Shown here piece by piece: positions 923 to 29,723 of a stretch of DNA of 32,000 nt. A program made the translations under genes and the position numbers. The number at the start of each line of letters is the position of its first letter. Positions within the stretch are counted from its first letter, which is position 1. The DNA comes from a virus, in IMG/VR virus record IMGVR_UViG_3300022745_000046, positions 15,502-47,501 of that record; one strand, given 5' to 3'. A model generated the notes under the pieces. That model ran no database searches. It saw only the letters and a list, made by a program, of their open reading frames with translations, and was not told where the DNA came from.

Positions 923-3900
923 TGCCACTATATCAACCACCAGGCCAACAGATAACAGTTAATCTATCTCAGACAATAAGTGGAGTTGCCACTGTGTCTG
1001 CAGGTTTGTCTTCGATGAGCTCTGGAGAGCTTGTATTCTCCAATTCGAATGGTGTGTCATTTGGAATGAACAATGGCACAATCACAGCTTCTGTTGCTGG
1101 AGGCGGCGGAGGCGGAGCAGGAAGCTACAACATTCTTGCAGCAGGAACTCAAACAGCAAATTCAACAGGGACTGTTGCTTTTGTCAACAGCAACAATGTC
1201 TCATTTGGAATGAGCAACAACTCTGTCATAACTGCTTCAGTAAGTTATTCTCAGTCAACAGCTCCTTCTGCAATATCAGCAGGAACAGCTATAGCAACAA
1301 ATGGAACAGTTGCTCTTGCAAATTCAAACGGCATCTCATTCGGAATGAATGCTGGAACTATAACTGCTTCATATACTGTTCCAAACGTTCCAGTTCAGAC
1401 AAATCAGTCAATTGGACTTTATGCTTCTGGAAATACAACAGGGCAGTCAAGCTCTTCAACTTTTGATGCTAGATCATTGTCAGTTTCTGGAGTGGGAATA
1501 GTCTCAGTTGGAGAATCTGGCGGGCAGCTTATAATTTCTGCAACAACTGCACAGTCAGTTCAAACACAGAATTCAGTTCAAGTTCTAGGATCATCTGGCA
1601 ATGTTTCTTTTGGAAACGCTAATGGTGTGTCATTTGGCGGTAATGCTTCTACAATAACGGCCTCAGTTGCAGCAGGAGCAACTGCAACGGGAAATCTAGG
1701 CGGCATCTCAGCTGGAACAACTTTGGCAACAAATGGCACAGTTGCTCTCTCTAACAGCAACGGAATAAGCTTTGGTATGAATGCTGGAACTATAACTGCT
1801 TCATACACAGTTCCAACGCAATCTGTTCAGACTCAAAATTCTGTTCAAGTTCTGGGATCTTCTGGAAACATTTCATTTGGAAATGCCAATGGAATTTCAT
1901 TCGGTGGAAATGGTTCAACGATCACAGCTTCATACACTGTGCCAACTCAGACAAATCAGACCCAGGGAATTTACGGAGTAGGAAATACAGCTGGACAGTC
2001 ATCTTCTTCTACATACGATGCAAGAAGCTTGACAGTAAGCGGAGCTGGAATAGTCTCTGTCGGAAATTCTGGTGGATCTATCATAATTTCTGCAACAACA
2101 GCTCAGTCAATTCAGACTCAGAATTCAATTCAAGTTCTTGGATCAAGCGGAAATATCTCGTTTGCCAATGGAAATGGCGTGTCATTTGGAGCAAATGCTT
2201 CAACTGTCACTGCTTCTGTTGCAGCTGGTGCTACAGCAACAGGAAACTTTGGAGGAATATCAGCTGGAACGACACAGGCAACAAACAACACTGTCATTCT
2301 TTCAAATTCAAATGGTATAAGCTTTGGAATGAATGCTGGAACTGTTACAGCTTCATATACAGTTCCAACACAGACAAATCAGACAGAGGGTTGGTATGCT
2401 GTTGGAAACACGACTGGTCAGTCATCTTCTTCAACTTACGATGCCAGAAGTATAACACTGAGCGCTGCAGGCATAATCTCAATTGGCAATTCTGGTGGCT
2501 CAGTTATTATCTCAGCTTCTTCTAATCAATCTGTTCAGACTCAAAACTCTGTTCAGGTTCTAGGATCTAGCGGCAATGTTTCTTTTGGAAATGCAAATAA
2601 TGTAACATTCGGGGCAAATGCTTCCACAATAACAGCATCAATTCCAGCAGGGGCAACAGCAACTGGTAATCTTGGAGCTCTAGCTGCAGGAACACAAACA
2701 GGATCATCTGGCACGATTGCTCTTGTCAACTCAAACGGTATCTCATTTGGAATGTCAAATAGCAGTCAAATAACTGCTTCATACACTGTTCCAACTCAGT
2801 CTGTTCAGTCATACAATATTCTTGCAGCAGGAACTCAGACTGCAAATACGTCGGGAACTGTTTCATTTGCGAATAGCAATAACATATCCTTTGGCATGAG
2901 CAATAGCTCAGTCATCACAGCTTCATTCAGTTACACTCAGTCAGTCGCGCCTAATGCTATATCAGCTGGAACTACTCTTGCTTCTACAGGCACTGTAGTG
3001 TTCTCAAACTCGAACAATGTAACGTTCGGTATGAACAACGGAACAATCACAGCTTCTGCAAATGCTGCTGGAGTTGGTGATGGTTACAATATCATTGCTG
3101 CAGGAACACAGACTGCTAACACGACAGGAACGATAGCTTTCCTTAACAGCAACAGCATTTCATTCGGAATGAGCAATAGCAGCCAAATCACTGCTTCATT
3201 CTCTTATACGCAGTCGACAGCACCAGCAGCATTCTCAGCAGGAACTACTCTTGCTTCAAATGGAACTGTTGCTCTCTCAAACAGTAACGGCATTTCATTT
3301 GGAATGAATGCAGGAACAATTACTGCTTCATACACTGTTCCAAACGTCCCTGCTCAGACAAATCAGACTCTGGGACTTTATGCTTCTGGAAATACAACAG
3401 GACAATCTTCATCTACGACGATAGATGCAAGAAGTTTGACATTGAGTGCCGCAGGCAACGCAAGTTTGGGTTACTCAAATGGAGCAATAGTCGTTTCAGT
3501 TGTGGCAGCAGGAGCAGCTGACGGTGTCAATATTCTTGCAGCAGGAACTCAAACAGCAACGTCAAACGGAACAGTTGCATTCCTGAACAGCAACAACATT
3601 TCATTCGGAATGTCAAATAGCAGTCAGATAACTGCTTCATTCTCATACACACAATCAACTGCTCCTTCTGCAGTCTCAGCAGGAACAACTCAGGCAACAA
3701 ACGGGACGATCGCTCTTTCTAATTCAAACGGAATCAGCTTTGGAATGAACGCGGGCACAATCACAGCTTCATATACAGTTCCCAACGTTCCAGCCCAGAC
3801 AGCACAAACAGTCGGTTACTATGCAACGGGAAACACGACTGGACAGTCATCTTCTTCAACTTACGATGCAAGAAGCATAACTCTCAGCGCTGCAGGAATA

Positions 3901-6531: not shown

Positions 6532-6547
6532 ATTCATGCGTAAAGAA

Positions 6548-6571
6548 GTCCTAGGTATTTTAGGATTTTTG
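6548..6571 (+). terminator. weak hairpin plus T-run after the fibre gene
   Basis: GTCCTA (6548-6553) pairs with TAGGAT (6561-6566) including one G-U pair. The loop is 7 nt and is followed by TTTTT. Confidence 0.3.
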
Positions 6572-6586
6572 CCTGAAAGGTAATGC

Positions 6587-7333
6587 ATGGAAAATAAGAA
6601 CATTCCTGTTCAAGAAGTTGTTGACAACTTGAAGGGAAAAGGTTTCGAGAATGTTGAGCTTATCTCTGGAACAACATACAAAGATAGCTCCACTGTGATA
6701 ATCATTCCGACAAGAGGAATGATCTCTCATAGAGTTGTACAGTCTTGGCAGAACTTGATTGCTCCAATGAATCAGAAGAGAGCAATCATCTTTGCTCAAG
6801 GTCATGAAGTCGGTCATGCTTACAATGAGATGATCAAGAACATCATATCAAATCCAGAATTGTCAAAGTGGAAGTATATCATGACTCTGGAAGATGACAA
6901 TATCCAACCAGCAGATGCTCACATCAGACTTCTTGAAACGATAGAGTGGGGAAAGTTTGATGCTGTTTCTGGTCTGTATTTCACTAAAGGTGAGTACGGA
7001 ATGCCAATGGCATACGGAGATCCAGAAGAATATTTGAGAACAGGTGTTCTGGACTTCAAGCCAAGAGATGTAAGAGAAGCTCTTAAGAGAGGACATGTCA
7101 TGCCAGTAAATGGCATTGCAATGGGCTGCAGTCTGTACAGAATGGATATGTTCAAAGAGATTCAGGGTCCGTGGTTTGTGACTCTGAATGATGTCGTTCC
7201 AGACAAGGGAGTTGCATGCTTCACGCAAGATCTCTACTTCTGTGAAAAAGCAGTCAAAGCTGGAAAGAGATTTGCTGTAGATATGAGAGTCAAGGTCGGA
7301 CATCTTGACGTCAATTCTGGCGTAGTTTACTGA
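6587..7333 (+). CDS. GT-A fold (family-2-like) glycosyltransferase
   Basis: ATG with AAAGG SD. N-terminal beta-strand VIIIPTRG (about 6694-6717). Acidic DxD-type motif TLEDDN (6890-6898). Downstream GCSLYRMDMF and QDLYFCEKAVKAGKRF resemble GT2 acceptor-side motifs. Confidence 0.65.
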   Translation: MENKNIPVQEVVDNLKGKGFENVELISGTTYKDSSTVIIIPTRGMISHRVVQSWQNLIAPMNQKRAIIFAQGHEVGHAYNEMIKNIISNPELSKWKYIMTLEDDNIQPADAHIRLLETIEWGKFDAVSGLYFTKGEYGMPMAYGDPEEYLRTGVLDFKPRDVREALKRGHVMPVNGIAMGCSLYRMDMFKEIQGPWFVTLNDVVPDKGVACFTQDLYFCEKAVKAGKRFAVDMRVKVGHLDVNSGVVY

Positions 7334-8094: not shown

Positions 8095-8247
8095 TTTGTT
8101 GATAAATCATATGGTCACTCTAGTTAGAGTAACTGAGTGTCACAGACTTTTTGCTGAAGTTTTTTTGAAATTTGCTGAAAAACAAAAAGGTGCGATACTT
8201 AGTGATGAAGGTTGTATAGTTTAACAACTTTTCGGAGAGTGAAAGAT

Positions 8248-8739
8248 ATGGCTGCAGAAATTCTTGGTGTAAATGATTTGTTGGCAAATACGTACGAGCC
8301 AAAAAGAAAGTTCAGGTGGTTCTTGCAGATCGATGGCATCGATGCATATGTTCTCAAGACAGCTGCACGCCCTCAAGCTACATTCGAAGAAACTGTCATC
8401 GACTACATCAATGCAAAGCGTTATGTTTCAGGTAAGATGTCTTGGAACCCAATTCAGGTTACAATGCATGATCCTGTCGCTCCATCTGCTTCTCAGAAGA
8501 TAATGGATTGGTTGAGACTCAACTATGAACCTTTGACAGGAAGAATGGGCTATGCTTCTTTCTACAAGAAGAATATCTCTCTAAAGGTTCTTGATCCTCA
8601 AGGAACTGTTGTTGAACTCTGGGATCTAACTGGCGCATGGCCTCAAGACATCAACTGGGGAGATCTTGATTATGCTTCTTCAGACAATGTTGAAATTTCA
8701 TTTACATTGAGGTTTGACAATGCTACTTTGCAGTATTGA
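8248..8739 (+). CDS. tail tube protein, T4 gp19-like
   Basis: ATG 8248 with GGAGAG SD; the track's TTG 8212 start lacks an SD. KFRWFLQIDGI...VLKTAARP at the N-terminus. WNPIQVTMHDPVAPSASQKIMDWL and LWDLTGAWPQDINWGDLDYASSDNVEISFTLRFD align by eye with T4 gp19 DDWTVTVMNDEAHDARQKFVDWQ and IEIKGLWPTNVGELQLDWDSNNEIQTFEVTLALD. Confidence 0.8.
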   Translation: MAAEILGVNDLLANTYEPKRKFRWFLQIDGIDAYVLKTAARPQATFEETVIDYINAKRYVSGKMSWNPIQVTMHDPVAPSASQKIMDWLRLNYEPLTGRMGYASFYKKNISLKVLDPQGTVVELWDLTGAWPQDINWGDLDYASSDNVEISFTLRFDNATLQY

Positions 8740-8773
8740 TTGAATCGAGCTTATCTAGACAAGTTTTACAAAG

Positions 8774-17568: not shown

Positions 17569-18918
17569 ATGACTCGTGTAAACTTTGTTGAATCTTTTTC
17601 TGACAGCAAGGGAACTTATTCAACTGCGTCACAAAATCCATTTTCTGATAATCAAGTAGTTGTTTGTTACGACATTAGAAGAAATAAGAGATTTCTGAAG
17701 AATGAAGGGTGGCTCGACAATCCGTCAACAATCTTTGATCTTAGGATTATATTCGGTGAAGAGTATGATGTCATCAAACTAGCCAAGCTGAAGAACATAG
17801 AGTCAATTCAAGATCTTGAATTTGAAGAAAAGAGATTCTCTGCAAATTTGAAAGCTCTTGAGCAGTCAAAAGTTGACATTCAAGACTTTAGCATCGAGCA
17901 AATCGTACCAGAAGAAATTCTGACAAGTTATCTGTCTGCTCGCTTTAATGCAGTGAAGCAGATCTGGAATGTTGTGACAGACGAAGATATTCTGAATTAC
18001 GAAAAGAATATCTGGCCAGTATACAAAAACATTCTAAAGATTGAAGAGTCAAAGATCTTTGTCGACAAGGAATTCATTTCAAGGTCAATCAAGAAAAATG
18101 ACATCGGAGTTCATGAGAGAAAGTTTCTTCATCACATGAATGACTTGTCAACTGACGGGTTTCTTAAAACTAGAATAAGCCCAGTCGGCTCAAAGACATG
18201 GAGACTGAGAGTAGAGAAGGGTTTCATGTGCATGTCAGTTCCACATGGAATCTGCAGAGAAGCAATTGTAAGCAGATTTGAAAATGGAAAGATTGCCTCT
18301 CTTGACTTCAATGCAATCGATTATAGATGCATCATCAAGACAGTGAATGATCCAGATTTGAATTCGTTCTATGAGAACTGTGATGATTTTCATGCTAGAA
18401 CATCTTCTCTTTTTGATAGCTCAATCGAAAATCTCAGAGACAGAACAAAGAAGATAACGTACGTTCACATCTATGGTGGATCAGTAGAAACTCTCCAGAA
18501 AAATACAATTCTGAACAGAATCAAGATCGTAGAGATGCTCTCTGTTCTAGAGAAGAAATTTACTCCGATTTCTCTTTTTAGAAGCAAGCTTTCATCAGAG
18601 TCAAGAGAGAGAGGTTTTCTGTTCACTCCGGGCGGTCACAAAGTTATTGTAGAAAAGGATGATCATGATGGTAAAGTCATTGGACTTTTTGCACAGACAT
18701 TCAGCTCATTCATTCTAAATGAGACAATCTCAGTTGCTCTAAACTTTCTTGATAATAGGAAGAGCAAACTTCTTTTCACAGTTCATGATGAGCTTATTTT
18801 TGACGTTCATCCAGACGATGAAGATGATTTTTCAAAGCTTGTTGAAGCAATTCAAGCAAAAACAGGTTTCAAGATTAAGATGAAGAAAGGTAAGAACTAT
18901 GCAGAAGCAACTAAGTGA
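17569..18918 (+). CDS. compact family A DNA polymerase (polymerase domain only, 449 aa)
   Basis: Motif A-like LDFNAIDYR (18301-18327; compare DYSQIELR). Motif B-like RDRTKKITYVHIYGGS (about 18438-18485; compare RxxAKxxNFGxxYG). Motif C TVHDELIFDV (about 18778-18807). No 3'-5' exonuclease Exo I/II/III motifs recognised in the N-terminal ~220 aa. Confidence 0.75.
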   Translation: MTRVNFVESFSDSKGTYSTASQNPFSDNQVVVCYDIRRNKRFLKNEGWLDNPSTIFDLRIIFGEEYDVIKLAKLKNIESIQDLEFEEKRFSANLKALEQSKVDIQDFSIEQIVPEEILTSYLSARFNAVKQIWNVVTDEDILNYEKNIWPVYKNILKIEESKIFVDKEFISRSIKKNDIGVHERKFLHHMNDLSTDGFLKTRISPVGSKTWRLRVEKGFMCMSVPHGICREAIVSRFENGKIASLDFNAIDYRCIIKTVNDPDLNSFYENCDDFHARTSSLFDSSIENLRDRTKKITYVHIYGGSVETLQKNTILNRIKIVEMLSVLEKKFTPISLFRSKLSSESRERGFLFTPGGHKVIVEKDDHDGKVIGLFAQTFSSFILNETISVALNFLDNRKSKLLFTVHDELIFDVHPDDEDDFSKLVEAIQAKTGFKIKMKKGKNYAEATK

Positions 18919-19498
18919 AGCAGAAATTATGAAGAATCATGACACTTTCTGGAATCTAGTGAATCAGATTCAGGGACAGAGACTGTCAAAGATCACAAAG
19001 CTTTTTGAATCGAAGTTCGGAAATAGCTACTTCATGGCTCCTGCTTCTTCAAAGACAGAATTTCATAATTGTTTTGTCGGAGGACTTCTGGCCCATTCTT
19101 TGAATGTCGTCAAGAACCTCAAGAAGCTGACAACGACAGTCGCCACAAAGAAATATCCAGATGAAAGCATCATTATTGCTGGACTCTTTCATGACCTCGG
19201 CAAAGCTGGAGACGGAGAGAATGAATATTACACTCCGAACAAGTCAGATTGGCATATCAAGAACGGTATTCTGTTCGAAATAAACAAGAATTGCCTGTAC
19301 TTGCCAACGTCTGAAAGAGGTCTTTTCGTTCTTCAAAAGAATGGAATTGAACTTTCATCAGATGAATATCTTGCAATCAGATTAAATGACGGTCAGTATG
19401 ATGAGACAAATAAGTCTTACAAGATGAAAGAGCCAGAGTTTGCTCTCCTGACTCACTGGGCAGACATGCTGAGTGTTAAGCAAGAGAAATCTCTGTAA
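18899..19498 (+). CDS. HD-domain metal-dependent phosphohydrolase, YhaM-like
   Basis: ATG with AAAGGTAAG SD, overlapping the polymerase 3' end by 20 nt. FHNCFVGGLLAHSLNV (about 19064-19111) and IIAGLFHDLGKAG (19181-19204 for GLFHDLGK) match the H...HD pattern. They also match the GGLL.H(S/T)L.V / LLHDIGK signature I recall for YhaM-type 3'-5' exonucleases. Confidence 0.7.
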   Translation: MQKQLSEAEIMKNHDTFWNLVNQIQGQRLSKITKLFESKFGNSYFMAPASSKTEFHNCFVGGLLAHSLNVVKNLKKLTTTVATKKYPDESIIIAGLFHDLGKAGDGENEYYTPNKSDWHIKNGILFEINKNCLYLPTSERGLFVLQKNGIELSSDEYLAIRLNDGQYDETNKSYKMKEPEFALLTHWADMLSVKQEKSL

Positions 19499-20532: not shown

Positions 20533-20901
20533 ATGGCTCCCAAGAAGAATGAGACAAGTGAGTTGCTTAATAGAGTCGAGGTGAAGCTCGATCTGTTCAA
20601 GGAACACTTTGACGGAAACATGACAGAGGTCTCAAAGAGATTCTCAGAAGTCCAGACTCAGATGAATGGCATTGATGGAATTCTTGTAAAGCAACAAGCC
20701 ATTCTTGACGAACACGTTAGAAGAACGAATCTGCTTGAAACAAAAGTAGAGAATGACAAGAGAATTCTAGAAGGAAAGATAGAACCTCTTGAGAAGCAAG
20801 CATTCACATTCAAACTTGCTTTAAAGCTTATTGCTGGTCTCGCTGCTGCAGGTGGCGGTGCTATTGGTATAAAGGAGATTGTCGCTCTACTTATTGGGTG
20901 A
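20533..20901 (+). CDS. coiled-coil protein with C-terminal hydrophobic (tail-anchor-like) segment
   Basis: SD AGGGTAAG. Heptad-like charged N-terminal ~90 aa. C-terminal LALKLIAGLAAAGGGAIGIKEIVALLIG. Its 3' end overlaps the SD/start region of the giant ORF. Confidence 0.55.
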   Translation: MAPKKNETSELLNRVEVKLDLFKEHFDGNMTEVSKRFSEVQTQMNGIDGILVKQQAILDEHVRRTNLLETKVENDKRILEGKIEPLEKQAFTFKLALKLIAGLAAAGGGAIGIKEIVALLIG

Positions 20902-20914
20902 GAGGACAATCAAA

Positions 20915-23900
20915 TTGAATCCAAAACTTAACGTAAGACAAGGTGCTGCAGGCTCTCGTGGAAATGGCGGAGGCGGCAAGCCTGGGTACCCACTCCCAGA
21001 TAATCTCAAGAACAATCTAGCTCCAGTTGAGGAAGATCTTCTTTCTCTTTCTCCTGTTGACTTTTCTGTTTCAAAGAAACAACACAATGATTCTGACTTT
21101 GTAAAGAAGTCAGATGTTTTAGACATTGTTGTCAAGAGTGTTATTTCAAAACTTCTTGGAGAAGGTGGAGCAGCTGTCAAGGGAGACAGAATAGAGAAGA
21201 AAGATATTGCTCCGACACTTGAGAAATTCTCAAAAGAAGTTCTTTCAAAACTCAAGCACAAGTGGGCAGGTCCAATTGGATCTACTGGAAAGAAGTCAAC
21301 AAGCGGTGATATAGACATTGGCTTCGATTCAGATCTTTCAATTGGTGATGTCGAGAAGATTGTAGATGATCTTGGACTTGAAAACAAAGCAATGAAGGGA
21401 CTTGGGGTTATCAGCATAAAGTTCCCTCAAGTTGATAGTGAGCAACAGGAAAATGGCAAGCACGTTCAAATAGACCTCATGTTCGGTCCAAGAGAGTGGA
21501 TCGAATTTGCATTTTATTCTCCAAGTGAAGGTGAGTCACAGTATTCTGGTGTTCAAGCAAGAGCTCTCTTCATCGCAATGATGAAGGCAGTCACGGGTCA
21601 TTCAGTTTCTCCAGCAAGGGGATTCTTCACGAGCGGAGATAAGAGCAAGGATAAGAAGTACATGAATGATCCAAAGCAAGCTGCTGCTCTCTTGAGTGCA
21701 AAAAGCTCAGAGCAGTGGTCTGTCGACGATCTAAATCAACCATTTGAAAAGATCTGGCTAAAGGCAAAGAAGAGCTTCACTCCTGAGCAAATAGAACAAG
21801 TCAAGAATACAATGAAGGAATTCATGGGAAGCATAAAGAAGCCCGTTCCTAAGGAGCTTGATGAAGCTTCAAGGAAGGGAATGCCAACTGGAATTCAGCA
21901 TCTTGAAGACTTGAATTATGAAGACTTCGTAACATTCCTTGAGAAATATCAGAGTCTTGAGTTAGATGGTGGTCTTGAAGTTTCTGAGAAAGTAGACGGT
22001 TCAGCTGCTCTCGTATTCGGTGTCGAGAATGGAAAACTCTGGACTCAGTCAAAGAAGGGCATGAAGTTCTTCTCATCATCACAGTATGGTGACAAGCCTA
22101 TGTTCAAGCCACTCAGAATGGCCCACGAAGCACTCCAATCAAAGAGTAAGGAGATTATAGGTGCCTGGCCAAAAGACATAGAATTCATGACTGGAGAGAT
22201 CCTATACACAAAGATCCCTAACACAATTGAGTATGGTCCAAATGTGATCATGATTCACGGTGTTCAGAAAAAAGACGGATCTGTTATAAGCGACGAAGAG
22301 TCTAGAAAGCTTGCAACTGCAGTGACAACTGCAGCTCATGGAAAGCTAAATGACGGTCAAGAAGAGTGGAAGTTTGAGTACAAGAGAATTATTCCAAACA
22401 AAGACGTCATGCTTGATGTCAAGAATGAGTATGATTCTCTTGGAGATGTTCTCAAGAGACTCAGAGAACTTGAACCAAACAAGTTAAAGAAAGACGGTAA
22501 GGGACCTTACAAGGCTGCTCTTGAAAGCTTCAAAGCAATTCAGCTTGCAGTCAAGAAGAAGCTTCTCACTCAGCTTAGAAAGCAGAAATCTGTTTACGGA
22601 CCCGAAGGCGGAGCAATAGAGGGAATTGTCTTCAGAGATCTTGACTCTGGTGGGATGGTCAAGCTTGTTGACAAGGATCTTTTCTCAAAGCTCAATCAGT
22701 TTCTTTGGAGTTTCAGAAATGATCTCGACAGAGGAAATAAAGTCGGTGACAAGATGGAGCTCGGAGTATTCCAGAAGTTCCTACAGAATGTTGGCAAAAA
22801 CGTAATCGGTTCAGAAGACATAAGACTCACAACATTTGTCTCGAGACTCAAGAAAATTCAGGATGAGATCCAATTCCCAGAAAATGTAGATACTGCTGAA
22901 AAGAAAGCCGACTATACTCTCGCTTACTACATCAAGAAGAATAATTTGATGTCTGGAGATTACATTCTTCAGTTTGAGAAAGCAGTAGCTGATGCGAAGA
23001 AGAATTATGATGAAGTCAAAGCATCTTGGGATAAGAGAAAGCAAGATGACATCAACTATGAAATAAAAGACGACGAGGGGAATGTCGTAAAGACTGTCAA
23101 GATGGACAAGCTCATCAAGGACAGAACTGATACTTCGTATGAAGAGATGGGAAAGCTTATTGACTCGATGAAGTCAACTGCTGAAGTCATCAAAGGAATG
23201 TCAAATGACGACACAAAGAAGACTGCTCTTCTCAAACTTGTCATGGGGCAGAATAGATTCAACAAGCTTGTTGGAAATGCCGATGATGAAGAACAGGCGA
23301 ATGAGTCAATAGCAATCCTTGAAAAGGATGATGTTTCTGACAAGAAGTTTGATCATGAGAGACAAGTTCTCAATTCATTTAAGGAAAAGCTGGCAAGCAA
23401 AGGAATGAATGCTGACAGCATGAAGGAACTTGGCTCTGGTAATAATGGCTCGGTCTTTGAATTGTCAGACGGAAGAGTTCTCAAGATAACAAAAGATGAT
23501 TCTGAAGCAAGAACTGCAAATCATCTTAAAGGAAAGAAACTTAAGCACGTCATCTTTATTCACGATGTTTTTGCTTTCCCAATCAGGAGGGGAGTAAAGT
23601 GGTACGGTATTGTCGAAGATAAAGCAGAACCGCTTCAAGACGAGGAAAGATTTGACAGTGCAACAAAAGACGTTATAAGAAGTGTAACTGCTGACGGTGA
23701 AGTTCATCATAATCCTTGGACAATGTCGTGGGGTCTCATAAAGAAGAAAGCTCTTCACAATGCATGGGATGAAGAAGTCACTCAAGAAAATCTCGACTAT
23801 CTAGAAGAACTCAGGTTCCCAGATCTTATGAAGGAACTTGAGAAGAATAGAGTCAATTATTCAGATGTTCACGGCGGAAACTTCATGATGAAGAATGGAG

Positions 23901-26900
23901 TTCTTGTTCTTGTAGATCTTGGCGGTCGCTCAGAGTCTCCCGGAAAGCCACCAAATGTTCTTGAGAAGAAGTTAAGAGAAGAACAACACAAAGAGATTCC
24001 TGCAATACTCAAGAAATTTGCCGATAAACTTGAGAAGAAGGGAATAAAGATTAAGAATGAAACTCCACTCGGCTCTGGATCAAGAGGCCAGGCTTTTGAA
24101 ACTCAAGATGGGAAAGTTCTGAAGATAACAAATGACGCTTCTGAAGCTAAAGCATCAATGAAGTTGAAAGATTCAAATAGCGAGCATCTTACAAAAGTTC
24201 TTGATGTTTTCAAGTTCAACCTGAGAGTCGGAAATAGAGAGTTCTTCGGTATTCTTCAGGAAAAGCTTGATAAGCTTTCTCATAAAGAATCATTTGAACT
24301 TGAAAGAGCAATAGACAATTCTCTTCTCAGAATGATTTCACCTGGAAAGATAGAGACATGGGAAACTTTCAAGAGCAATGCAGAGAACATAATTGACAGA
24401 CACAACAGAGATAAAGAAAAATTCTTGAATTCTCTGAAGATTCTTGAAAAATTCAATGTCGACAAAATAATGGATGAGCTGTATCAAGCAAGAATACACT
24501 ACACTGATTATCATGCTGGTAACTTTATGAAGCGTGGTGATAAGTATGTTCTGATAGACTTGGGTTATTCAAAGTCTGAAGGTGCACAAGAGCCACCTAT
24601 TCTTGAAAGGATAGCTCAGATGTCACAGAATTCACTCAGGGAAGCGACAAGTGATCAAGTAGGTGTTACTATAGGTCGCTTTCAGCCTTTTCATGCGGGT
24701 CACGCAGAGATTATAAGAAACCTCACAAAGAAGTTCAACAAGGTCATCGTGATCATTGCTGGAAACTCAAAGGAAAAGAAGAATCCTTTCTCGTTTGAGT
24801 TGAGAAAAGAGATAATGAAAAAGTCTCTTCCTGATGTTTTCTCAAAGCTAGAGATTCACAAAGCTGAAATAGAAGGAAAGGGTTCGGGTTTCATTCCAGG
24901 CATCATTTCTGAGCTTGTCGGAATGGGTAAGACCAAACTCACTCCAGACACTGCGTTCCATGTTCTTGTCGGAGAAGACAGAATTGAAACAATAAAAAAA
25001 CAGTTTGATCTTGCAAAGAATGCAAGAGAGAATAAAGGAATCGCCTTCAATTTTGATCTTGATGCTGTCATGATTCAAGCTCTTCCCGATGTCAAGAATG
25101 ACGATGATTCTGGAAGAGTTTCTGGCACCAAAGTTAGAGAAGCTCTTGCTAGTGATAACAAGGAGGAGGTCAAGAAGTTAATGGATCCTCATCTTGTTTC
25201 AAATGAATCTGATTTTGAAAAGATTTACTCTGAACTTAAGAATCAACTGTCAGCAAGTCAACCTGTCAAGAAGAAAGAGAAAGTTACAGAAGCTCTCTCG
25301 ACATACTTTGATAAACATGATGTCGAAGATGTTGTAACACAGAATGAAGAAGAGCTAAAGAAGAGAGGAATTGAGGTCGGTGGAGAACTTGGATCTGGCA
25401 AGGATGGTGTTGCGTATCAAGTAAACAATAACAGAGCCTTGAAGGTCACAACTGACGTTGGCGAAGCTCAGACTGCTCTTAAGATCATTTCAAGTGGCAA
25501 GAATCTGAAGCACGTAGTTCATTTCTTTGATGTGTTCAGATTTAGAAAGGGAGTCAAGAAAAATATAGAACTCTTTGGAATTGTCACAGAAAGATTGACA
25601 AAGCTTTCAAGAGATGAAGAAGAGAAGTACGATTTCATTTCAGCATTTTGGTTGACAGACGAGAAAGATTCAAGATCAAATCAAATTCTTGACGCAATCA
25701 GAGAGGGAAACTATGACAAGCTTCTTAACATTGTTTATGAAGTTTTCCTTGAAGCAGAAAGAAAAGGTGATCCGCTTGCTGTGGTAGAAGCATCAACTGC
25801 TCCAACTGCAAAGCATGGAGTGTTTAGAAAAAACCCATCTCAACAAAAGGCCCCTCAAATAGACAAAAAGCCTCAAGGTATAAAGAGCATCGCTGGAAGA
25901 AATCCAGAAGATATAGCAAATAGAAAGTTTGACGTTTACAAGAAAACAGCAGAGCACTTCAAGCTTCGTGAAATGATTCAGGATCTGAAATCTCTTGGAA
26001 TAGAATTTTCAGATTTTCACTCGGGAAATGTTATGAAAAGAGGAAATGATTACGTCATCAATGATCTTGGAAGGTCGGGTGGTGGTCTTGATAAATCCGG
26101 AATAAAGCATCTTGAATCAAAGAATCCAGATGACGTTCTTGAATCTATAACTGAGATGGTTATTTCAGAACTTGGAGCAATGAATGGATACGGATTCAGC
26201 CAGACAGGTTTGAATGCAGGGTCTTCAGCTGTTTCAAGATTCAAAAACAGAGTTGATCCCGACTCAGAAGAGTTGTGGCAGAATCAATTGTCAAGAGTAA
26301 GTTTAAAGAATCCTAATTCAGATCTGCAGGAAGACAATCAAGAGATGTTCTCTTCAGGAGAAGTAGATTCTCAGAAGCTTGGAAAGCTTGAGGAAGAGAA
26401 GTGGATCAAGTGGTCAGAAAAAACTGACACAGTTGACTTTGATTTGAAGAAGAGAGCCGGTTCAGGAAGAGGAGAAGCTAAGCTTGCTGCTGAACTTGAG
26501 CTTAGAGGATACGATGTAAAAGAAGAGAGTGAAGGAAAGGGAGAAGGATCATTTGACCTTCTTGTAAATGGGAAGCGCTGGGAAGTTAAAGAGTTCAAAC
26601 CAATAAGAATAGAAACGACAGGACAAAAGCAGATTAGAACAACTCTGAACTTTTTCTATTCATTCTCAGAATCTATTAAGCAAGCACTTGAAGAAATAAA
26701 GACTCTAAATCTTGGAGAAGATGTTTTCAAGATTGGAAAGCTAAATTCTCCATCTCTTGAAAAGTTTGCTGAGAAATCAATGAGCGCAGTTACGAATGGA
26801 AACGTCCCAGTTGGATTGTCTGGTTTTTCAAAAAGCGCTGCTCATCCAAACTATCTTGAAGTTGCAAAAGCTCTTGACTCATTCATAAAAGAATCTGAGA

Positions 26901-27646
26901 AAGCAAAGAAAAGTGGCAAGCTAAAGATCTCTCTAGGCGATGGGCAAGATGCAAAAGACTTGTTCAGCGGAGATATGGATATCTCTGACATAAAATACTT
27001 GATGAAGATGCTTAAGAAGTCAGCTCCTCAAGGATCAGTTAGTGATCTGAATGACATTGGTGCTCTTCAAATTCTAGAAAGTTCTCTCACTGAGAATGGA
27101 ATAAACAAGACAAACTTGACTCAGGAAGTTGTCAATCACTGGAAAGAAGCATTCGATCCAGAAAAGATTCTCGGTGAAGATGAAAAGATTATCATAGTTG
27201 ATAAGGAAAAGGGATTCTTTATCATGCAACCAAAAGATCTTCTTAAGTGGTACGGACCAGCTGGAATTTCCAAGTCAACTCAGCAACTTCGTCCCAGAAA
27301 GGAACTTAAGACAGCAGGACAAGTCCAGCCTCAGCCAGGTGAACAGAAACCAAAGAAGCCAAAGACTCAAGGACAAGCTACATCAAAGAAGACAAAACTG
27401 CCTCAGGGTCAAATAGACTTCATGAGTCCGGAGTATAAGAACATTCTTGATAAGAAGTCAAAGGTTGCTTCAGATGCACTCGATGTGTTCAAGAGAAAGC
27501 TGAGCATTCTTGATAATGCAAAGAAGAGAAAGACAAGTCCAGAAGAACTTCAGAAGAAAGAACAAGACGTCAAGAAAGCAGAAGAAGAAGCAAGAAAGCT
27601 ATTTAGCAAAGTAGGGCTTGATTTTCCGAACATAGAGCAAACTTGA
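20915..27646 (+). CDS. giant multidomain enzyme: Pol-beta NTase + Rnl1-like RNA ligase + 3x protein-kinase-like + NMN adenylyltransferase + PD-(D/E)xK-like + basic C-terminal tail
   Basis: The frame is open from 20879 to TGA 27644-27646. The start is uncertain because the first in-frame ATG is about 540 nt in. TTG 20915 has the best SD (GAGAGGA 20900-20906, 8-nt spacer). TTG 20879 lies only 1 nt after its GGAG. Domain motifs are listed as separate features. Confidence 0.85.
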   Translation: MNPKLNVRQGAAGSRGNGGGGKPGYPLPDNLKNNLAPVEEDLLSLSPVDFSVSKKQHNDSDFVKKSDVLDIVVKSVISKLLGEGGAAVKGDRIEKKDIAPTLEKFSKEVLSKLKHKWAGPIGSTGKKSTSGDIDIGFDSDLSIGDVEKIVDDLGLENKAMKGLGVISIKFPQVDSEQQENGKHVQIDLMFGPREWIEFAFYSPSEGESQYSGVQARALFIAMMKAVTGHSVSPARGFFTSGDKSKDKKYMNDPKQAAALLSAKSSEQWSVDDLNQPFEKIWLKAKKSFTPEQIEQVKNTMKEFMGSIKKPVPKELDEASRKGMPTGIQHLEDLNYEDFVTFLEKYQSLELDGGLEVSEKVDGSAALVFGVENGKLWTQSKKGMKFFSSSQYGDKPMFKPLRMAHEALQSKSKEIIGAWPKDIEFMTGEILYTKIPNTIEYGPNVIMIHGVQKKDGSVISDEESRKLATAVTTAAHGKLNDGQEEWKFEYKRIIPNKDVMLDVKNEYDSLGDVLKRLRELEPNKLKKDGKGPYKAALESFKAIQLAVKKKLLTQLRKQKSVYGPEGGAIEGIVFRDLDSGGMVKLVDKDLFSKLNQFLWSFRNDLDRGNKVGDKMELGVFQKFLQNVGKNVIGSEDIRLTTFVSRLKKIQDEIQFPENVDTAEKKADYTLAYYIKKNNLMSGDYILQFEKAVADAKKNYDEVKASWDKRKQDDINYEIKDDEGNVVKTVKMDKLIKDRTDTSYEEMGKLIDSMKSTAEVIKGMSNDDTKKTALLKLVMGQNRFNKLVGNADDEEQANESIAILEKDDVSDKKFDHERQVLNSFKEKLASKGMNADSMKELGSGNNGSVFELSDGRVLKITKDDSEARTANHLKGKKLKHVIFIHDVFAFPIRRGVKWYGIVEDKAEPLQDEERFDSATKDVIRSVTADGEVHHNPWTMSWGLIKKKALHNAWDEEVTQENLDYLEELRFPDLMKELEKNRVNYSDVHGGNFMMKNGVLVLVDLGGRSESPGKPPNVLEKKLREEQHKEIPAILKKFADKLEKKGIKIKNETPLGSGSRGQAFETQDGKVLKITNDASEAKASMKLKDSNSEHLTKVLDVFKFNLRVGNREFFGILQEKLDKLSHKESFELERAIDNSLLRMISPGKIETWETFKSNAENIIDRHNRDKEKFLNSLKILEKFNVDKIMDELYQARIHYTDYHAGNFMKRGDKYVLIDLGYSKSEGAQEPPILERIAQMSQNSLREATSDQVGVTIGRFQPFHAGHAEIIRNLTKKFNKVIVIIAGNSKEKKNPFSFELRKEIMKKSLPDVFSKLEIHKAEIEGKGSGFIPGIISELVGMGKTKLTPDTAFHVLVGEDRIETIKKQFDLAKNARENKGIAFNFDLDAVMIQALPDVKNDDDSGRVSGTKVREALASDNKEEVKKLMDPHLVSNESDFEKIYSELKNQLSASQPVKKKEKVTEALSTYFDKHDVEDVVTQNEEELKKRGIEVGGELGSGKDGVAYQVNNNRALKVTTDVGEAQTALKIISSGKNLKHVVHFFDVFRFRKGVKKNIELFGIVTERLTKLSRDEEEKYDFISAFWLTDEKDSRSNQILDAIREGNYDKLLNIVYEVFLEAERKGDPLAVVEASTAPTAKHGVFRKNPSQQKAPQIDKKPQGIKSIAGRNPEDIANRKFDVYKKTAEHFKLREMIQDLKSLGIEFSDFHSGNVMKRGNDYVINDLGRSGGGLDKSGIKHLESKNPDDVLESITEMVISELGAMNGYGFSQTGLNAGSSAVSRFKNRVDPDSEELWQNQLSRVSLKNPNSDLQEDNQEMFSSGEVDSQKLGKLEEEKWIKWSEKTDTVDFDLKKRAGSGRGEAKLAAELELRGYDVKEESEGKGEGSFDLLVNGKRWEVKEFKPIRIETTGQKQIRTTLNFFYSFSESIKQALEEIKTLNLGEDVFKIGKLNSPSLEKFAEKSMSAVTNGNVPVGLSGFSKSAAHPNYLEVAKALDSFIKESEKAKKSGKLKISLGDGQDAKDLFSGDMDISDIKYLMKMLKKSAPQGSVSDLNDIGALQILESSLTENGINKTNLTQEVVNHWKEAFDPEKILGEDEKIIIVDKEKGFFIMQPKDLLKWYGPAGISKSTQQLRPRKELKTAGQVQPQPGEQKPKKPKTQGQATSKKTKLPQGQIDFMSPEYKNILDKKSKVASDALDVFKRKLSILDNAKKRKTSPEELQKKEQDVKKAEEEARKLFSKVGLDFPNIEQT
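21180..21500 (+). other. domain: Pol-beta-superfamily nucleotidyltransferase
   Basis: IGSTGKKSTSGDIDIGFD (21275-21328) matches hG[GS]x9-13DhDh; compare Pol beta GSFRRGAESSGDMDVLL. A third-carboxylate strand candidate is HVQIDLMF (Asp at 21473-21475). Confidence 0.55.
21900..22740 (+). other. domain: ATP-dependent RNA ligase, T4 Rnl1-like (covalent nucleotidyltransferase)
   Basis: Motif I EKVDGSA (Lys codon 21989-21991; T4 Rnl1 is KEDGSL). Motif III-like MTGEILYTK. Motif IV EGIVFRD (22619-22639). Motif V MVKLVDKD (about 22655-22678). Confidence 0.6.
23410..23940 (+). other. domain: protein-kinase-like module 1
   Basis: Gly loop LGSGNNGSVF (from 23429). Beta3 Lys in RVLKITKD. SEA helix-C Glu. 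Catalytic loop YSDVHGGNFM (Asp 23864-23866). DFG-equivalent VDLGG (about 23912-23926). Confidence 0.6.
24050..24580 (+). other. domain: protein-kinase-like module 2
   Basis: LGSGSRGQAF (from 24068). KVLKITND. YTDYHAGNFM (Asp 24506-24508). IDLGYS. Confidence 0.6.
24655..25200 (+). other. domain: NMN adenylyltransferase (NadM/NatV-type HxGH nucleotidyltransferase)
   Basis: VGVTIGRFQPFHAGHAEII (His codons 24692-24694 and 24701-24703). VIVIIAGNSKEKKNPFSFELRKEIM. C-terminal SGTKVREAL (about 25121-25147), equivalent to the ISSTxxR motif. Confidence 0.7.
25370..26080 (+). other. domain: protein-kinase-like module 3 (with a larger insert)
   Basis: LGSGKDGVAY (from about 25387). RALKVTTD. FSDFHSGNVM (Asp 26012-26014). 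INDLGRS. Confidence 0.6.
26400..26700 (+). other. domain: PD-(D/E)xK nuclease-like module
   Basis: GSGRGEAKLAAELELRGYDV...GSFDLLVNGKRWEVKEFK. Asp at 26555-26557 and E-V-K at 26582-26590 fit D-x(n)-E-x-K. This is a weak single-motif call. Confidence 0.35.
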
Positions 27647-28170
27647 TGCAGAGTTGGAATGCTATATTCGTAGAAGACAAAGAGTATCAACTTCTCAATA
27701 GCAGTCTAACTTCAATAAAATTCAGTAATGCTTCAAAATTTGACCTCGCTCTTCTCATGAGTAAAATGGAAGAGCGAGGTGTTCCTTTGAGTTATACTTC
27801 TGAACTCACAGAGATCAAATTCACTCAACTTAGAAATGGAGATCACGGAGATTATCTGAATGGAGTTATCCGTCTCTCTTCAGATAAAACAACTCAATCT
27901 CTTATGGACAAGATCTTTGTTCATGAGCTTGCTCATCATGTTGATTGCACGAATAATATCACTGATGATGACTCTATCTTGAGAGAGAAGAAAAAGAAGT
28001 CGAAGTACATGAAAGACAAGTACGCAAGAAAAGATGTGTTTGAGTATTTTGCTGTTGGCTTTGAAGTCTTTTATTGTGGTACAGATGAAGAAAAAAGATT
28101 CATGAAGAAGAAAAATCCCATTCTTTTTTCAGTCATTTCTAAACTTCATAAAGAGCATTGCAAGAAATAA
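27646..28170 (+). CDS. small HExxH zinc-metallopeptidase-like protein
   Basis: ATG 27646 overlaps the giant ORF stop (TGATG). IFVHELAHHVD contains HExxH. No other motif recognised. Confidence 0.55.
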   Translation: MQSWNAIFVEDKEYQLLNSSLTSIKFSNASKFDLALLMSKMEERGVPLSYTSELTEIKFTQLRNGDHGDYLNGVIRLSSDKTTQSLMDKIFVHELAHHVDCTNNITDDDSILREKKKKSKYMKDKYARKDVFEYFAVGFEVFYCGTDEEKRFMKKKNPILFSVISKLHKEHCKK

Positions 28171-28266: not shown

Positions 28267-29157
28267 ATGGATTTTAATGCACTTAGAGAGAGACTCAATT
28301 CACTGAACAAGAAGACATCGAAGGCTGATGATCTTTGGAAGCCAAAGGACGAGCATCAGGTTAGACTCGTTCCTTCTGCTGACGGTTCGGACCCTTTCAA
28401 GGAAGTTTACTTCCACTATGAGCTTGGTGACAATCAGCAGATTCCTTGCCCAAAGATGAATCATGGTGAGGAATGTGCCATCTGTGATTTCGCAGATGTT
28501 CTCAAGTCTTGGAATGGACCTGATGGTGAGAAGAAGCCGGACAATGAGAGAAAGGCCGACTTCGAAATCTTCAAGAAGATTCAGGCAAAGGCAAGAATCT
28601 TTACTCGAATGATAGAGAGAGGTCAGAAGGGAGCTCCCGATTCTGAAACTGCAAAGTGGTGGGGAATGACTTCAGCTCAAGTCAATCAGGCTCTTGATGT
28701 TTGCACTGACGGTGATCGTCTTGAAGCTCTCGGTCTTTCAAGCGGAGACAGTGAATCTTTGAAGATTCTCTTTGATCCCAAGAAGGGCTATGACCTGACT
28801 GTCAGCTATGCAAAGCCTGGCGAGAAGGGTAATGCAAAGCAGTATACAAACATCACAATCAAGGGAAGAATCAAGCAGTCTCCTCTTGCAAAGAGTGATG
28901 CAGATGCAAAGAAGATTATTGATTCAGCAAAGGATCTTTCAGAACTCTTCCCAAAGGTCAGTTCAACTGATATTGAGAAGATCTTGAAGAAGTTTGTTGG
29001 TCGCTCTTCTGAAGAGGCAAAGCCCGAAGGTGGAGTTGAGAAGTATTCTGGCTCTGAAAAGCAGGCTGTTAAGCCAGCAAACACGAAAGAAAATGCTAAG
29101 GTTTCTGGAACTCGTTCCATTGATGAAGCCTTTGGCGACATGGTTGCTGACGACTAA
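28267..29157 (+). CDS. single-stranded DNA-binding protein, T4 gp32-like
   Basis: SD AAAGGA. LWKPKDEHQVRLVPSADGSDPF resembles gp32 [21 protein letters not shown]...APF. The zinc motif H-x10-C-x8-C-x2-C (FHYELGDNQQIPCPKMNHGEECAIC, about 28413-28487) compares with gp32 H-x12-C-x9-C-x2-C. Acidic C-terminus DEAFGDMVADD. Confidence 0.8.
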   Translation: MDFNALRERLNSLNKKTSKADDLWKPKDEHQVRLVPSADGSDPFKEVYFHYELGDNQQIPCPKMNHGEECAICDFADVLKSWNGPDGEKKPDNERKADFEIFKKIQAKARIFTRMIERGQKGAPDSETAKWWGMTSAQVNQALDVCTDGDRLEALGLSSGDSESLKILFDPKKGYDLTVSYAKPGEKGNAKQYTNITIKGRIKQSPLAKSDADAKKIIDSAKDLSELFPKVSSTDIEKILKKFVGRSSEEAKPEGGVEKYSGSEKQAVKPANTKENAKVSGTRSIDEAFGDMVADD

Positions 29158-29222: not shown

Positions 29223-29723
29223 ATGACAGGTAAATTCTACAAAGTTCAAAACCTAGCTCCAGGTTTTGATGGGCTAGTTGTGCAAGCAGAGCAAAGTTTA
29301 GACAATGACAAGTACTTTGTTGTCTCAAGAATCATTGAAGAGAATTCTTTCAATGGAGATAGACTTGTCTCTGTTCAAATTCCTCTTCACTCTCTTTTAA
29401 TTCATTCTGACAATCTCGCTTTGTCTGAAGATCAGGGAGTTGCAACAAGGCAGTTTGCTTCTGACAATCCGTATGGTAAGTTCATTCTTGAAGGAAGAAT
29501 GGATCTCGGATCTGTGAGAGTAACTTACTCAAGATATGAAAAAGCTCTTCAGGTTACAATCTTCGATACGATCGCAAATAAGACAGTCGTGTCTCAAAAT
29601 TTCTATAAGAACTTTGAGCATGTGATTGACTCAATCGAGCAGTGCCTCAAAGAAGGCGATCAGAGTGGCGAGGACCTTGTTTTTAAGCTAGTCGAACTAA
29701 AGGAAATGGAATCCAATGGCTAA
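29223..29723 (+). CDS. hypothetical protein
   Basis: 166-aa ORF with SD AAGGAA. It overlaps the recombinase start by 8 nt. No motif recognised. Confidence 0.5.
   Translation: MTGKFYKVQNLAPGFDGLVVQAEQSLDNDKYFVVSRIIEENSFNGDRLVSVQIPLHSLLIHSDNLALSEDQGVATRQFASDNPYGKFILEGRMDLGSVRVTYSRYEKALQVTIFDTIANKTVVSQNFYKNFEHVIDSIEQCLKEGDQSGEDLVFKLVELKEMESNG

Follow-up and report, generated by a model that had tools for sequence, protein, structure and literature searches.

A 32,000-nucleotide stretch of viral DNA (the window; positions 15,502 to 47,501 of the IMG/VR virus record IMGVR_UViG_3300022745_000046) contains a giant gene at 20915..27646 on the + strand, which comprises 2243 codons and a TGA stop and encodes a chain of approximately 250 kDa. 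An initial annotation, made from the sequence alone, described a single stop-free frame in which seven enzyme-like modules are fused. The frame was borne out by the open reading frame (ORF) listing of the window, in which it extends over 20879..27646 (+), or 2255 codons, and all of the motifs quoted in that annotation are found in the order given there. The remaining five frames over the same stretch contain 87-210 stops each, with longest open runs of 47-179 codons, and the probability of encountering no stop in 2255 codons, computed from the base composition of the window, has a log10 of approximately −66. The probable start is the TTG at 20915, which lies 8 nt after a Shine-Dalgarno-like GAGAGGA.

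Database records from several sources point to the reality of this gene. Its 2243-residue product is identical to a database protein (P0001) from a 47.5-kb JGI contig, and the identical gene is also present on a 95-kb ENA contig. Assemblies from JGI, ENA, Logan, and NCBI likewise contain homologues of 1300-2500 residues, each encoded by a single ORF, and the gene is kept as one unit in independent metagenomes. These independent single-ORF homologues and the identical copy on the second contig exclude an artefactual fusion and any artefact of assembly or frameshift. The chain has no transmembrane segments, and a role in a membrane or channel was rejected, as no 19-residue hydrophobic window scores above 1.13 on the Kyte-Doolittle scale. 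The giant protein is a soluble chain of independently folding enzymes encoded by a single bona fide gene, and the proposal of one fused multi-enzyme phage gene is supported. All catalytic motifs are intact across the enzyme modules. Five of the seven initial domain calls hold; an Rnl1-like identity, a specificity for nicotinamide mononucleotide (NMN), and a PD-(D/E)xK assignment were not upheld.

Enzyme modules of the giant protein

The chain begins with a Gly-rich N-terminal leader (20915..21091, +; residues 1-59) containing the motif GKPGYPLP. The general form of the leader motif, (R/K)G.PGYP(V/L/I)P, lies at residues 21-31 of the giant protein (20975-21007). Among 66 family proteins, for which N-termini of P0002-P0064 were compared, 30 carry it, at positions between residues 13 and 53 and whichever module follows. 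This conserved motif may be a targeting or processing signal.

The leader is followed by a Pol-beta-superfamily nucleotidyltransferase (NTase) module (21092..21856, +; residues 60-314), with the motifs GSTGKK..GDIDIG at residues 121-136 and QIDLMF at 185-190. The residues G122-S123-x8-D132-I-D134 and D187 (of QIDLMF) are invariant in 16 homologues and conform to the pattern hG[GS]-x(9-13)-DhD with a third carboxylate. These catalytic residues are kept in two stand-alone proteins of jumbo phages, XYS97604 of Phosso and gp231 of PA5oct. An AlphaFold2 model was made of residues 60-810, which cover this module and the ligase-like module after it, with a predicted local distance difference test score (pLDDT) of 84.3. 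When the NTase part was compared with the PDB using Foldseek, it matched the palm-thumb of Pol beta (3lqc_B, E 1.6e-4, TMt 0.54), and more than 30 Pol beta/lambda chains are also in the list. Together, the catalytic motifs and the Foldseek matches support the Pol-beta NTase call. The module has no Pfam, PHROG, or NCBIfam match, and the model for RlaP is not matched. A profile search found 199 relatives. Among the 120 matches listed, nearly all are stand-alone proteins of approximately 270-320 residues, with a few of up to 480; all of these 120 are annotated 'hypothetical' and none has a Pfam domain.

The next module is a ligase-like adenylyltransferase domain (21857..22684, +; residues 315-590), which continues into a mainly helical C-terminal extension (22685..23344, +; residues 591-810), defined from the secondary structure of the model and containing no OB fold. 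Its motifs run in the canonical order: motif I is SEKVDGSA with K359 (EKVDGSA at residues 358-364), the motif III region is GEILYTKIPNTIEYG (GEILY..PN.IEYG), motif IV is EGIVFRD at 569-575, and motif V is VKLVDK at 582-587. Across the family these motifs are unchanged or almost so. In an alignment of 32 proteins, DUF6267 members included, there is no variation at K359, D361, or G362, nor at E569, G570, K583, V585, or D586; the K, D, and G of KxDG are also invariant in 53 stand-alone relatives. In the PDB, the closest Foldseek matches to the ligase-like model include T4 Rnl2 (2hvr, E 4.5e-5) and a Palaeococcus Rnl3-type ligase (4.7e-5), with T4 Rnl1 behind them at rank 44 (E 6.3e-4). A Foldseek search of BFVD returned dozens of annotated viral RNA ligases with E-values of 1e-7 to 1e-4.

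The Rnl1 model PF09511 (RNA_lig_T4_1) was not matched by the window protein at E<=1 and was below threshold in 8 of 32 homologues, the best of which (P0013, E 4.9e-5) reached 23.7 bits against a cut-off of 28.3. PF09414 (RNA_ligase), the model of Rnl2/Rnl3/Rnl5-type ligases, was matched by one of 23 close homologues (E 3.4e-3) and by 31 of the 53 stand-alone relatives (best E 1.9e-7). Alignment of the module with this stand-alone family of 430-500 residues gave an hhalign probability of 100% (E 2e-54), and when the ligase profile was run with HMMER against 1.84 billion representatives, 470 cluster representatives were found. The covalent-nucleotidyltransferase (ligase) fold that had been proposed is supported by the invariant KxDG lysine, the Foldseek matches, and the PF09414 matches in relatives. 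'Rnl1-like' is too specific a name, given the sub-threshold Rnl1 scores, the higher ranks of Rnl2 and Rnl3, and relatives that match PF09414 and not PF09511. As judged from sequence and model, the module is a member of the ligase superfamily and not of the Rnl1 family, with a predicted enzyme activity.

The Pfam domain DUF6267 (PF19782) shares the H.ED, KxDG, PN..Y, EG, and K.VD motifs with the ligase-like module. It fills the ligase slot, right after the same NTase module, in a second type of giant protein (P0030-P0032; 8001-13229 of locus L004), which is found in another phage context and lacks the peptidase gene that adjoins the gene described here. A ligase-fold annotation is probably justified for DUF6267.

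Three kinase-like modules lie further along the chain. Module 1 (23345..23989, +; residues 811-1025) contains a G-loop, the lysine of VLKIT, a DVHGGN loop, and DLG, and ends at PPNVLE with no C-lobe. Module 2 (23990..24631, +; residues 1026-1239) includes a weak APH match at residues 1192-1219, and module 3 (25310..26164, +; residues 1466-1750) carries an insertion of approximately 70 residues in its helical middle part. The three motif sets are located around residues 839-1004, 1052-1218, and 1492-1720. Modules 1 and 2 are 35% identical (E 4e-34), and module 3 is related to both of them (E 2e-15 with module 1, 4e-20 with module 2). All three copies keep the G-loop, Lys, Asp/Asn, and DxG residues; across the family, 68 complete kinase modules occur in 28 of 33 proteins, at 1-4 per protein, and in 23 modules chosen to represent them the residues G, G, K, D, N, and D never vary; these belong to the G-loop, the beta3 Lys, the catalytic Asp/Asn, and DxG. 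The modules are considered to be without a C-lobe because they end approximately 15 residues past the DxG. Scores against known families vary between homologues: the window protein reaches 16.6 bits against APH (cut-off 23.2), and the homologue P0002 passes Pfam ABC1 (35.6 bits, cut-off 22.9), with ABC1 matched by nine homologues and APH by seven. A profile of the 23 modules matched 225 PDB sequences at E<=1, with a best E near 1e-3, and among the 60 matches listed nearly all are protein kinases (YopO, SteC, NleH, MK2, and RSK). The presence of three paralogous kinase-like modules, as initially annotated, is supported by their mutual E-values and invariant catalytic residues. The conserved 'PPxLE' with which each kinase module ends and a 'P.EL.EA' at the NTase/ligase junction were also considered as T4-type (L/I)xE protease sites. 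This reading is not claimed because the Glu may be the equivalent of the APE motif and hydrophobic-x-Glu sequences are common by chance.

Inserted between kinase-like modules 2 and 3 is a HIGH-motif (HxGH / SGTxxR) nucleotidyltransferase (24632..25309, +; residues 1240-1465), which is nearest to NadM and the archaeal NMN adenylyltransferases (NMNATs). It carries GRFQPFHAGH at residues 1254-1263 (HAGH at 1260-1263) and SGTKVREAL at 1403-1411. The module passes the cut-offs of Pfam CTP_transf_like (E 5.6e-11; 43.2 bits, cut-off 21) and TIGR00125 (46.9 bits, cut-off 27.7) and matches phrog_395 (E 7e-19). With a 13-sequence profile, the PDB matches are led by the NMNATs MJ0541 (1.4e-11) and NadM (8.7e-11), with pantetheine-phosphate adenylyltransferases at 3e-7; NadM and the archaeal NMNAT were also the best matches in a single-sequence search. 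The name NMNAT given to this module was overstated: the curated cut-offs that it passes are those of the HIGH superfamily, and a specificity for NMN is unproven, as the scores for the corresponding equivalog models fall far below their cut-offs. On its motifs and best matches, the NadM-like module most plausibly makes nicotinamide adenine dinucleotide (NAD+).

The C-terminal module (26165..27364, +; residues 1751-2150) is present in only about six relatives. In six sequences the pattern GRGE..K..E / YD / EVKE is invariant, corresponding to E1854, E1860, D1881, and E1890-V-K1892 (nt 26474-26593), and WEVKE lies at residues 1889-1893, with the basic tail beyond it. From the six-sequence alignment, a helix-strand-strand-strand-strand-helix order is predicted that is compatible with the alpha-beta-beta-beta-alpha-beta core of PD-(D/E)xK enzymes; the rest of the module is helical, with no recognisable fold. 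The module has no Pfam match in the window protein, and a search with its model (pLDDT 73.7) gave no Foldseek match below E 0.35, only helical-bundle noise. An Mrr_cat match in P0009 was rejected as support for PD-(D/E)xK, as it is a different domain and does not align. For the initial PD-(D/E)xK-like call there is the conserved E..D..ExK pattern, with neither profile nor Foldseek backing, and this candidate assignment is unconfirmed. The chain ends with a Lys/Pro/Gln-rich basic tail, present as described, and then a charged helical stretch (together 27365..27643, +; residues 2151-2243), both poorly conserved.

Module shuffling and genomic context

A whole-protein search found 33 proteins of 1300-2500 residues, and the scan of representatives adds more. 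A census was made with five module profiles, using the labels L for the leader, A for the NTase, B for the ligase-like module, K for the kinases, N for the HIGH NTase, and C for the C-terminal module. Approximately 45 family representatives shuffle modules around a core of ligase-like module and HIGH NTase, and the order and number of modules vary, for example L-A-B-K-K-N-K-C, L-B-K-N-K, and A-K-B-K-K-N-K; modules are duplicated and swapped as well as reordered. The ligase-like module and HIGH NTase nearly always co-occur, and there are minimal B-N proteins of approximately 680 residues that contain no kinase. Accessory domains found in orthologues are SLT lytic transglycosylase (four), InPase pyrophosphatase (two), a 2H phosphoesterase (one, directly before the ligase), and Nudix (one, in the relative P0033).

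The initial annotation had suggested checking whether the modules exist as separate genes in related phages, and they do. In the Sinorhizobium jumbo phage Phosso (L006, PV764938.1), the ligase-like XYS97603 (6806-8041, probability 96.5%) is overlapped by the gene for the NTase XYS97604 (7998-8858, probability 98.9%, E 1e-17). In the Pseudomonas jumbo phage PA5oct (L007, MK797984.1), the ligase-like protein is gp228 (EST35_0228; 5974-7314, E 7e-13) and the NTase-like protein is gp231 (8570-9283, E 1.5e-12); gp229 was also tested as the NTase homologue and rejected. These stand-alone genes are annotated as hypothetical in both phages and are downstream of primase and helicase genes. The record of PA5oct marks gp231 as a virion structural protein by electrospray ionization tandem mass spectrometry (ESI-MS/MS), and the study of this phage lists 93 virion-linked products (PMC7318152). 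The metagenomic locus L011 has an NTase gene, then a 150-residue gene, and then a gene for a 638-residue ligase and HIGH-NTase protein; in locus L008, an NTase gene is followed by one gene and then a stand-alone HIGH NTase. The NTase is thus associated with the ligase in several ways, being fused to it in the window and encoded by an adjacent or near-adjacent gene in Phosso, PA5oct, and L011. No close relative was found among 50,697 deposited phage genomes.

All genes of the window are on the + strand. Directly downstream of the giant gene is a gene for a zincin metallopeptidase of 174 residues (27646..28170, +) with the motif HELAHH, which passes Pfam ATLF (34.9 bits, cut-off 27.4) and M90. 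Its ATG overlaps the TGA of the giant gene as TGATG, and the peptidase gene is translationally coupled to the giant gene. A peptidase is found downstream of the giant gene in four of four related syntenic loci (L001, L002, L003, and L005), with one 330-residue gene between them in L002. The coupled peptidase, the family-wide shuffling, and the ligase and HIGH-NTase core all go beyond the initial annotation.

The wider neighbourhood is that of a tailed phage. It includes a T4 gp19-like tail tube (8212-8739, +), a T4-type baseplate protein (9589-10398, +), a baseplate wedge (15315-15629, +), the C-terminal half of a family-A DNA polymerase (17569-18918, +; positions 141-379 of 381 in the Pfam model), an HD/HDIG phosphohydrolase (18899-19498, +) that overlaps the end of the polymerase, a gp32-like single-stranded DNA-binding protein (SSB; 28267-29157, +), and UvsX/RecA (29716-31023, +). 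Synteny is kept in three other phages of the lineage (L001-L003), in the order baseplate, polymerase-A fragment, HD, three small genes, giant gene, zincin peptidase, SSB, UvsX, 5'-3' exonuclease, DnaB, and ribonucleotide reductase. Among deposited phages, the Microcystis phage Mel-JY01 has the most similar RecA, at only 43.8% identity, and the source of the window is an uncultured, distantly T4-like myovirus. The arrangement of polymerase-A fragment and overlapping HD gene is conserved in L001-L003. The fragment may be part of a split polymerase, and the HD enzyme might functionally belong with the giant gene. The lineage also encodes a DnaE-type Pol III alpha (PHP, DNA_pol3_alpha; 19112-20543 in L005, and the flanks of L001/L003/L005), and the same flanks contain Cpn10, an RNase T-like exonuclease, ribonucleotide reductase, and ThyA.

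The sole tRNA in the window is a tRNA-Lys(UUU) at 9287-9359 (+). Directly before it is an ORF of 102 residues (8875-9183, +) that matches the Pfam PTH2 peptidyl-tRNA hydrolase family (E 4.9e-6; 27.2 bits, cut-off 23). Anticodon nucleases of the PrrC type cleave tRNA-Lys, and these two genes suggest a phage that buffers attacks on translation. Two further ORFs were recorded. A second giant ORF (922-6531, +; 1869 residues) has no significant PHROG or Pfam match; glycosyltransferase-like, methyltransferase-like, and tail-tube genes lie downstream of it. Immediately before the giant gene, an ORF of 122 residues (20533-20901, +) with no family match is predicted to form a coiled coil and has a C-terminal hydrophobic anchor, LALKLIAGLAAAGGGAIGI (Kyte-Doolittle 1.77).

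Possible functions of the fused enzymes

Phages, and conjugative elements as well, encode large polypeptides that combine many enzymes and are termed 'polyvalent proteins' (Iyer, Burroughs, Anand, de Souza, and Aravind 2017; PMC5512222). We put at roughly 60% the probability that the giant gene is a variant of these, inferring a function that combines NTase/ligase end repair, NAD+ chemistry, and phosphorylation in a product that is perhaps processed and delivered in the virion. The earlier statement that no described protein resembles it was overstated, as the architecture fits polyvalent proteins; so was the description as non-structural, since the protein may be packaged into the virion. In the proposed mechanism, the NTase and ligase block would heal and seal broken nucleic-acid ends, the likeliest substrates being tRNA or other RNA cut by host anticodon nucleases or other endoribonucleases, with the NTase restoring lost nucleotides before the ligase seals. 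The substrate adenylylated by the HIGH NTase would be a small phosphorylated compound, in all likelihood NMN, from which NAD+ would form. Its phosphate might come from the flanking kinases, as in NadR, or these kinases might act on proteins of the host; a role as protein kinases directed at the host, like T7 gp0.7, is just as conceivable. Cleavage by the adjacent peptidase may release the individual enzymes, and the virion may carry some or all of the protein into the cell, where it would work from the first moments of infection.

Several observations are consistent with parts of this explanation. The RNA-repair theme, which was already raised in the initial annotation, gains support because the NTase and ligase are fused here and adjacent elsewhere (Phosso, PA5oct, and L011); the substrate is unproven. 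Furthermore, the 2H domain, the upstream HD gene, the tRNA-Lys(UUU), and the PTH2-like gene are what one would expect of a phage whose tRNA supply is under attack. Packaging is hinted at by the SLT domains in same-locus orthologues, the virion-located NTase homologue of PA5oct, and the conserved leader.

A number of results weigh against this explanation. There is no characterised protein among the close homologues. Fold evidence was needed for the NTase and ligase modules because sequence-profile searches of the PDB were empty: the 16-sequence NTase profile, the ligase module profile, and the profile of the stand-alone ligase family each found nothing significant. Alignment of the stand-alone family with T4 Rnl2 by hhalign was also not significant, with the KxxG motifs paired only informally, and the E-values of the Foldseek matches in the PDB are modest (1e-4 to 1e-5). 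The preference for RNA over DNA as the likely substrate comes solely from the absent OB domain and the ranking of matches. For the HIGH NTase, the NMNAT equivalog cut-offs were missed by a wide margin (46.1 bits against 127 for NF002243, and 41.1 against 181 for TIGR01527); only approximately 60 N-terminal residues align to the NMNAT models, the central part of the domain having diverged. NadM-encoding phages have been reported always to carry NadV (PMC9503650). No NadV/NAPRTase domain was found in the window or among the genes listed in flanks of <=10 kb, taken around the giant gene or a near neighbour, at four related loci from genomes of 95-200 kb. Classical RNA repair would not call for kinases of this sort, because known polynucleotide 5'-kinases are P-loop enzymes and not protein-kinase-like. 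In terms of delivery, no MuF, portal, or capsid fusion was found, the giant gene sits between baseplate and replication genes, gp228 of PA5oct is not flagged as a virion protein, and cleavage by the peptidase is purely conjectural. For processing and packaging we allow no better than an even chance, because of the missing head-protein fusion, the replication neighbourhood, and the absence of gp228 from the virion list.

The same NTase and ligase could instead serve as an accessory to DNA repair or replication, in which a minimal PolX-like polymerase and a nick-sealing ligase would fill and seal gaps and nicks in the DNA of the phage while the other modules support nucleotide supply. Such a system would resemble the Pol X and ligase of African swine fever virus (ASFV) or bacterial LigD. 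The best structural matches of the NTase are indeed the palm-thumb regions of DNA polymerases beta and lambda, but Pol beta chains are over-represented in the PDB, which inflates their share of the match list. The location of the giant gene in a block with the polymerase-A fragment, gp32-like SSB, UvsX, 5'-3' exonuclease, DnaB, and ribonucleotide reductase is favourable to a role in DNA metabolism, as is the position of the Phosso and PA5oct stand-alone genes after primase and helicase genes. Against this, the ligase module has no OB domain and has a helical C-terminal part as in Rnl1/Rnl2, its top fold matches and the Pfam matches of its relatives are RNA ligases, and one orthologue has an RNA-type 2H phosphoesterase directly upstream of the ligase, so that we regard a DNA-repair function as unlikely. 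Very doubtful is a third possibility, in which the kinases phosphorylate a sugar or alcohol and the HIGH enzyme makes a CDP-, ADP-, or nucleoside diphosphate (NDP)-X donor, the other modules being passengers; the NDP-linked donor would serve to modify DNA, virion, or cell surface. In nearly every architecture the HIGH NTase has kinase modules as immediate neighbours, but its steady partner is the ligase-like domain, and the minimal ligase and HIGH-NTase proteins are kinase-free. Similarly, some kinase modules match the APH, WaaY, and RfaY families of small-molecule and lipopolysaccharide (LPS) kinases, but the kinase profile matches protein kinases first. Glycosyltransferase-like and methyltransferase-like genes are present in the window, and HIGH NTases with sugar kinases for NDP-sugar synthesis have been described in jumbo phages (PMC7824862). 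The GRFQPFHxGH and NPFS..R motifs and the best PDB and NCBIfam matches are those of NadM and archaeal NMNAT, however, with pantetheine-phosphate adenylyltransferases lower and no glycerol-3-phosphate or sugar-phosphate cytidylyltransferase among the matches listed.

Two other explanations differ in where and when the enzymes would act. One of them, which corresponds to the initial annotation, is a purely cytoplasmic, fused counter-defence enzyme made after infection, which would be neither processed nor packaged and to which the peptidase would be unrelated. The protein has no transmembrane segments and no fusion to a virion protein, its gene has an early/replication neighbourhood, and gp228 is not in the PA5oct virion list, all of which agree with such a role. 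The SLT domains of same-locus orthologues make little sense in the cytoplasm, though, and the conservation and translational coupling of the peptidase, the detection of the PA5oct NTase homologue in virions, and the conserved leader motif also speak against a cytoplasmic enzyme, leaving it with a small share of the probability. At the other extreme is a virion-delivered polyprotein, cut by the zincin into an RNA end-repair pair, an NAD+-regenerating adenylyltransferase fed by small-molecule or polynucleotide kinases of protein-kinase fold, and host-directed kinases. This toolkit would be released at DNA entry, before phage gene expression, and would pre-empt abortive infection by tRNA cutting or NAD+ burning. 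The ligase and HIGH-NTase core would then stand for a new coupling of reactions, such as NAD+-dependent charging of the ligase with the NAD+ re-made in situ from the released NMN. We offer this scheme as a speculative one that is probably wrong in its full form.

Comparison with known systems and significance

The preferred explanation, a variant polyvalent protein, draws on clear similarities to described examples. Like them, the giant protein is a large phage polypeptide of disparate enzymes whose domains are shuffled between relatives; its family contains a Pol-beta NTase, C-lobe-less kinases, InPase, 2H, Nudix, and SLT, which cleaves peptidoglycan; and a zincin-like metallopeptidase is associated with it. 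The kinases of polyvalent proteins also lack the C-lobe, and their zincin peptidases have been proposed to process the chain (PMC5512222). In contrast to those proteins, the peptidase here is a separate, coupled gene and not part of the chain, modules of the MuF, portal, ArdC, ART, and methylase kinds are missing, and virion packaging is only hinted at. The core of RNA-ligase-like and NadM-like modules is absent from that study, in which a text search finds no 'NMNAT', and its authors state that their 2H domains were never seen associated with RNA ligases (PMC5512222).

In the context of phage RNA repair, as carried out by T4 Rnl1/Pnkp, Rnl2, and RlaP, the similarities are the fold with the KxDG lysine, the helical C-terminal domain, and the link between NTase and ligase, together with the 2H domain in one orthologue, the conserved upstream HD gene, and the tRNA-Lys(UUU) in the window. 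Pol-beta NTases such as RlaP associate with RNA ligases and have been proposed to restore nucleotides lost to anticodon nucleases prior to sealing (PMC7824862). By analogy, the NTase module would be RlaP-like in its working and its ligase association, but it is no recognisable member of RlaP: it has no Pfam family and leaves the RlaP model unmatched. Further differences are that no curated ligase model was passed, that the sequence is far from Rnl1, Rnl2, Rnl3, and Rnl5, and that the kinases are protein-kinase-like, with no P-loop polynucleotide kinase/phosphatase.

NadR is an NMNAT fused to a nicotinamide riboside kinase (PMC9503650). The HIGH NTase resembles NadM/NadR in its GRFQPFHxGH, NPFS..R, and SGTxxR motifs and in its best matches, NadM and archaeal NMNAT; it is fused to kinases as in NadR, and the relative P0033 has a Nudix domain as in NadM. 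It differs from them in that the kinases are not P-loop enzymes and that the module is nearly always fused to a ligase-like domain. Phage NAD+ salvage is otherwise represented by NARP2-type pathways of Nampt and Nmnat. The kinase-like modules share a minimal core (G-loop, Lys, Asp/Asn, and DxG) with T7 gp0.7, NleH, SteC, and YopO, which are deployed by parasites against their hosts; unlike these, they form three paralogues in one chain, and the similarity is at the level of profiles only (E near 1e-3). EST35_0228 of PA5oct, its counterpart in the phage RsoM2USA, XYS97603 of Phosso, and DUF6267 are homologous to the ligase-like module, with the same H.ED, KxDG, PN..Y, EG, and K.VD motifs; in contrast to the giant protein, they are stand-alone or have other architectures and are annotated as function-unknown.

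The individual folds and the concept of polyvalent proteins are already known. In the literature searched, neither this architecture nor DUF6267 is described. New in relation to that literature are the ligase-like and NadM-like core, the tandem mini-kinases, the separate coupled peptidase, and the conserved leader, as well as the view of DUF6267 and 'hypothetical' jumbo-phage genes as enzymes of ligase fold that are paired with a Pol-beta NTase family so far lacking annotation. The ligase-fold family of approximately 470 cluster representatives takes in DUF6267 and these jumbo-phage genes, and the NTase family has approximately 200 stand-alone relatives and no Pfam model. The family of minimal kinases may also provide new reagents. 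Also worth pursuing are the recurrent fusion of a ligase-like domain with a NadM-like adenylyltransferase and the pairing of the giant gene with its peptidase, which may be a case of a tailed phage that processes a polyprotein. The cultured jumbo phages PA5oct, RsoM2USA, and Phosso are experimentally tractable carriers of homologues. If the inferred activities are real, a single phage gene would answer two major types of abortive-infection immunity, tRNA cleavage and NAD+ depletion, and would provide kinases in addition.

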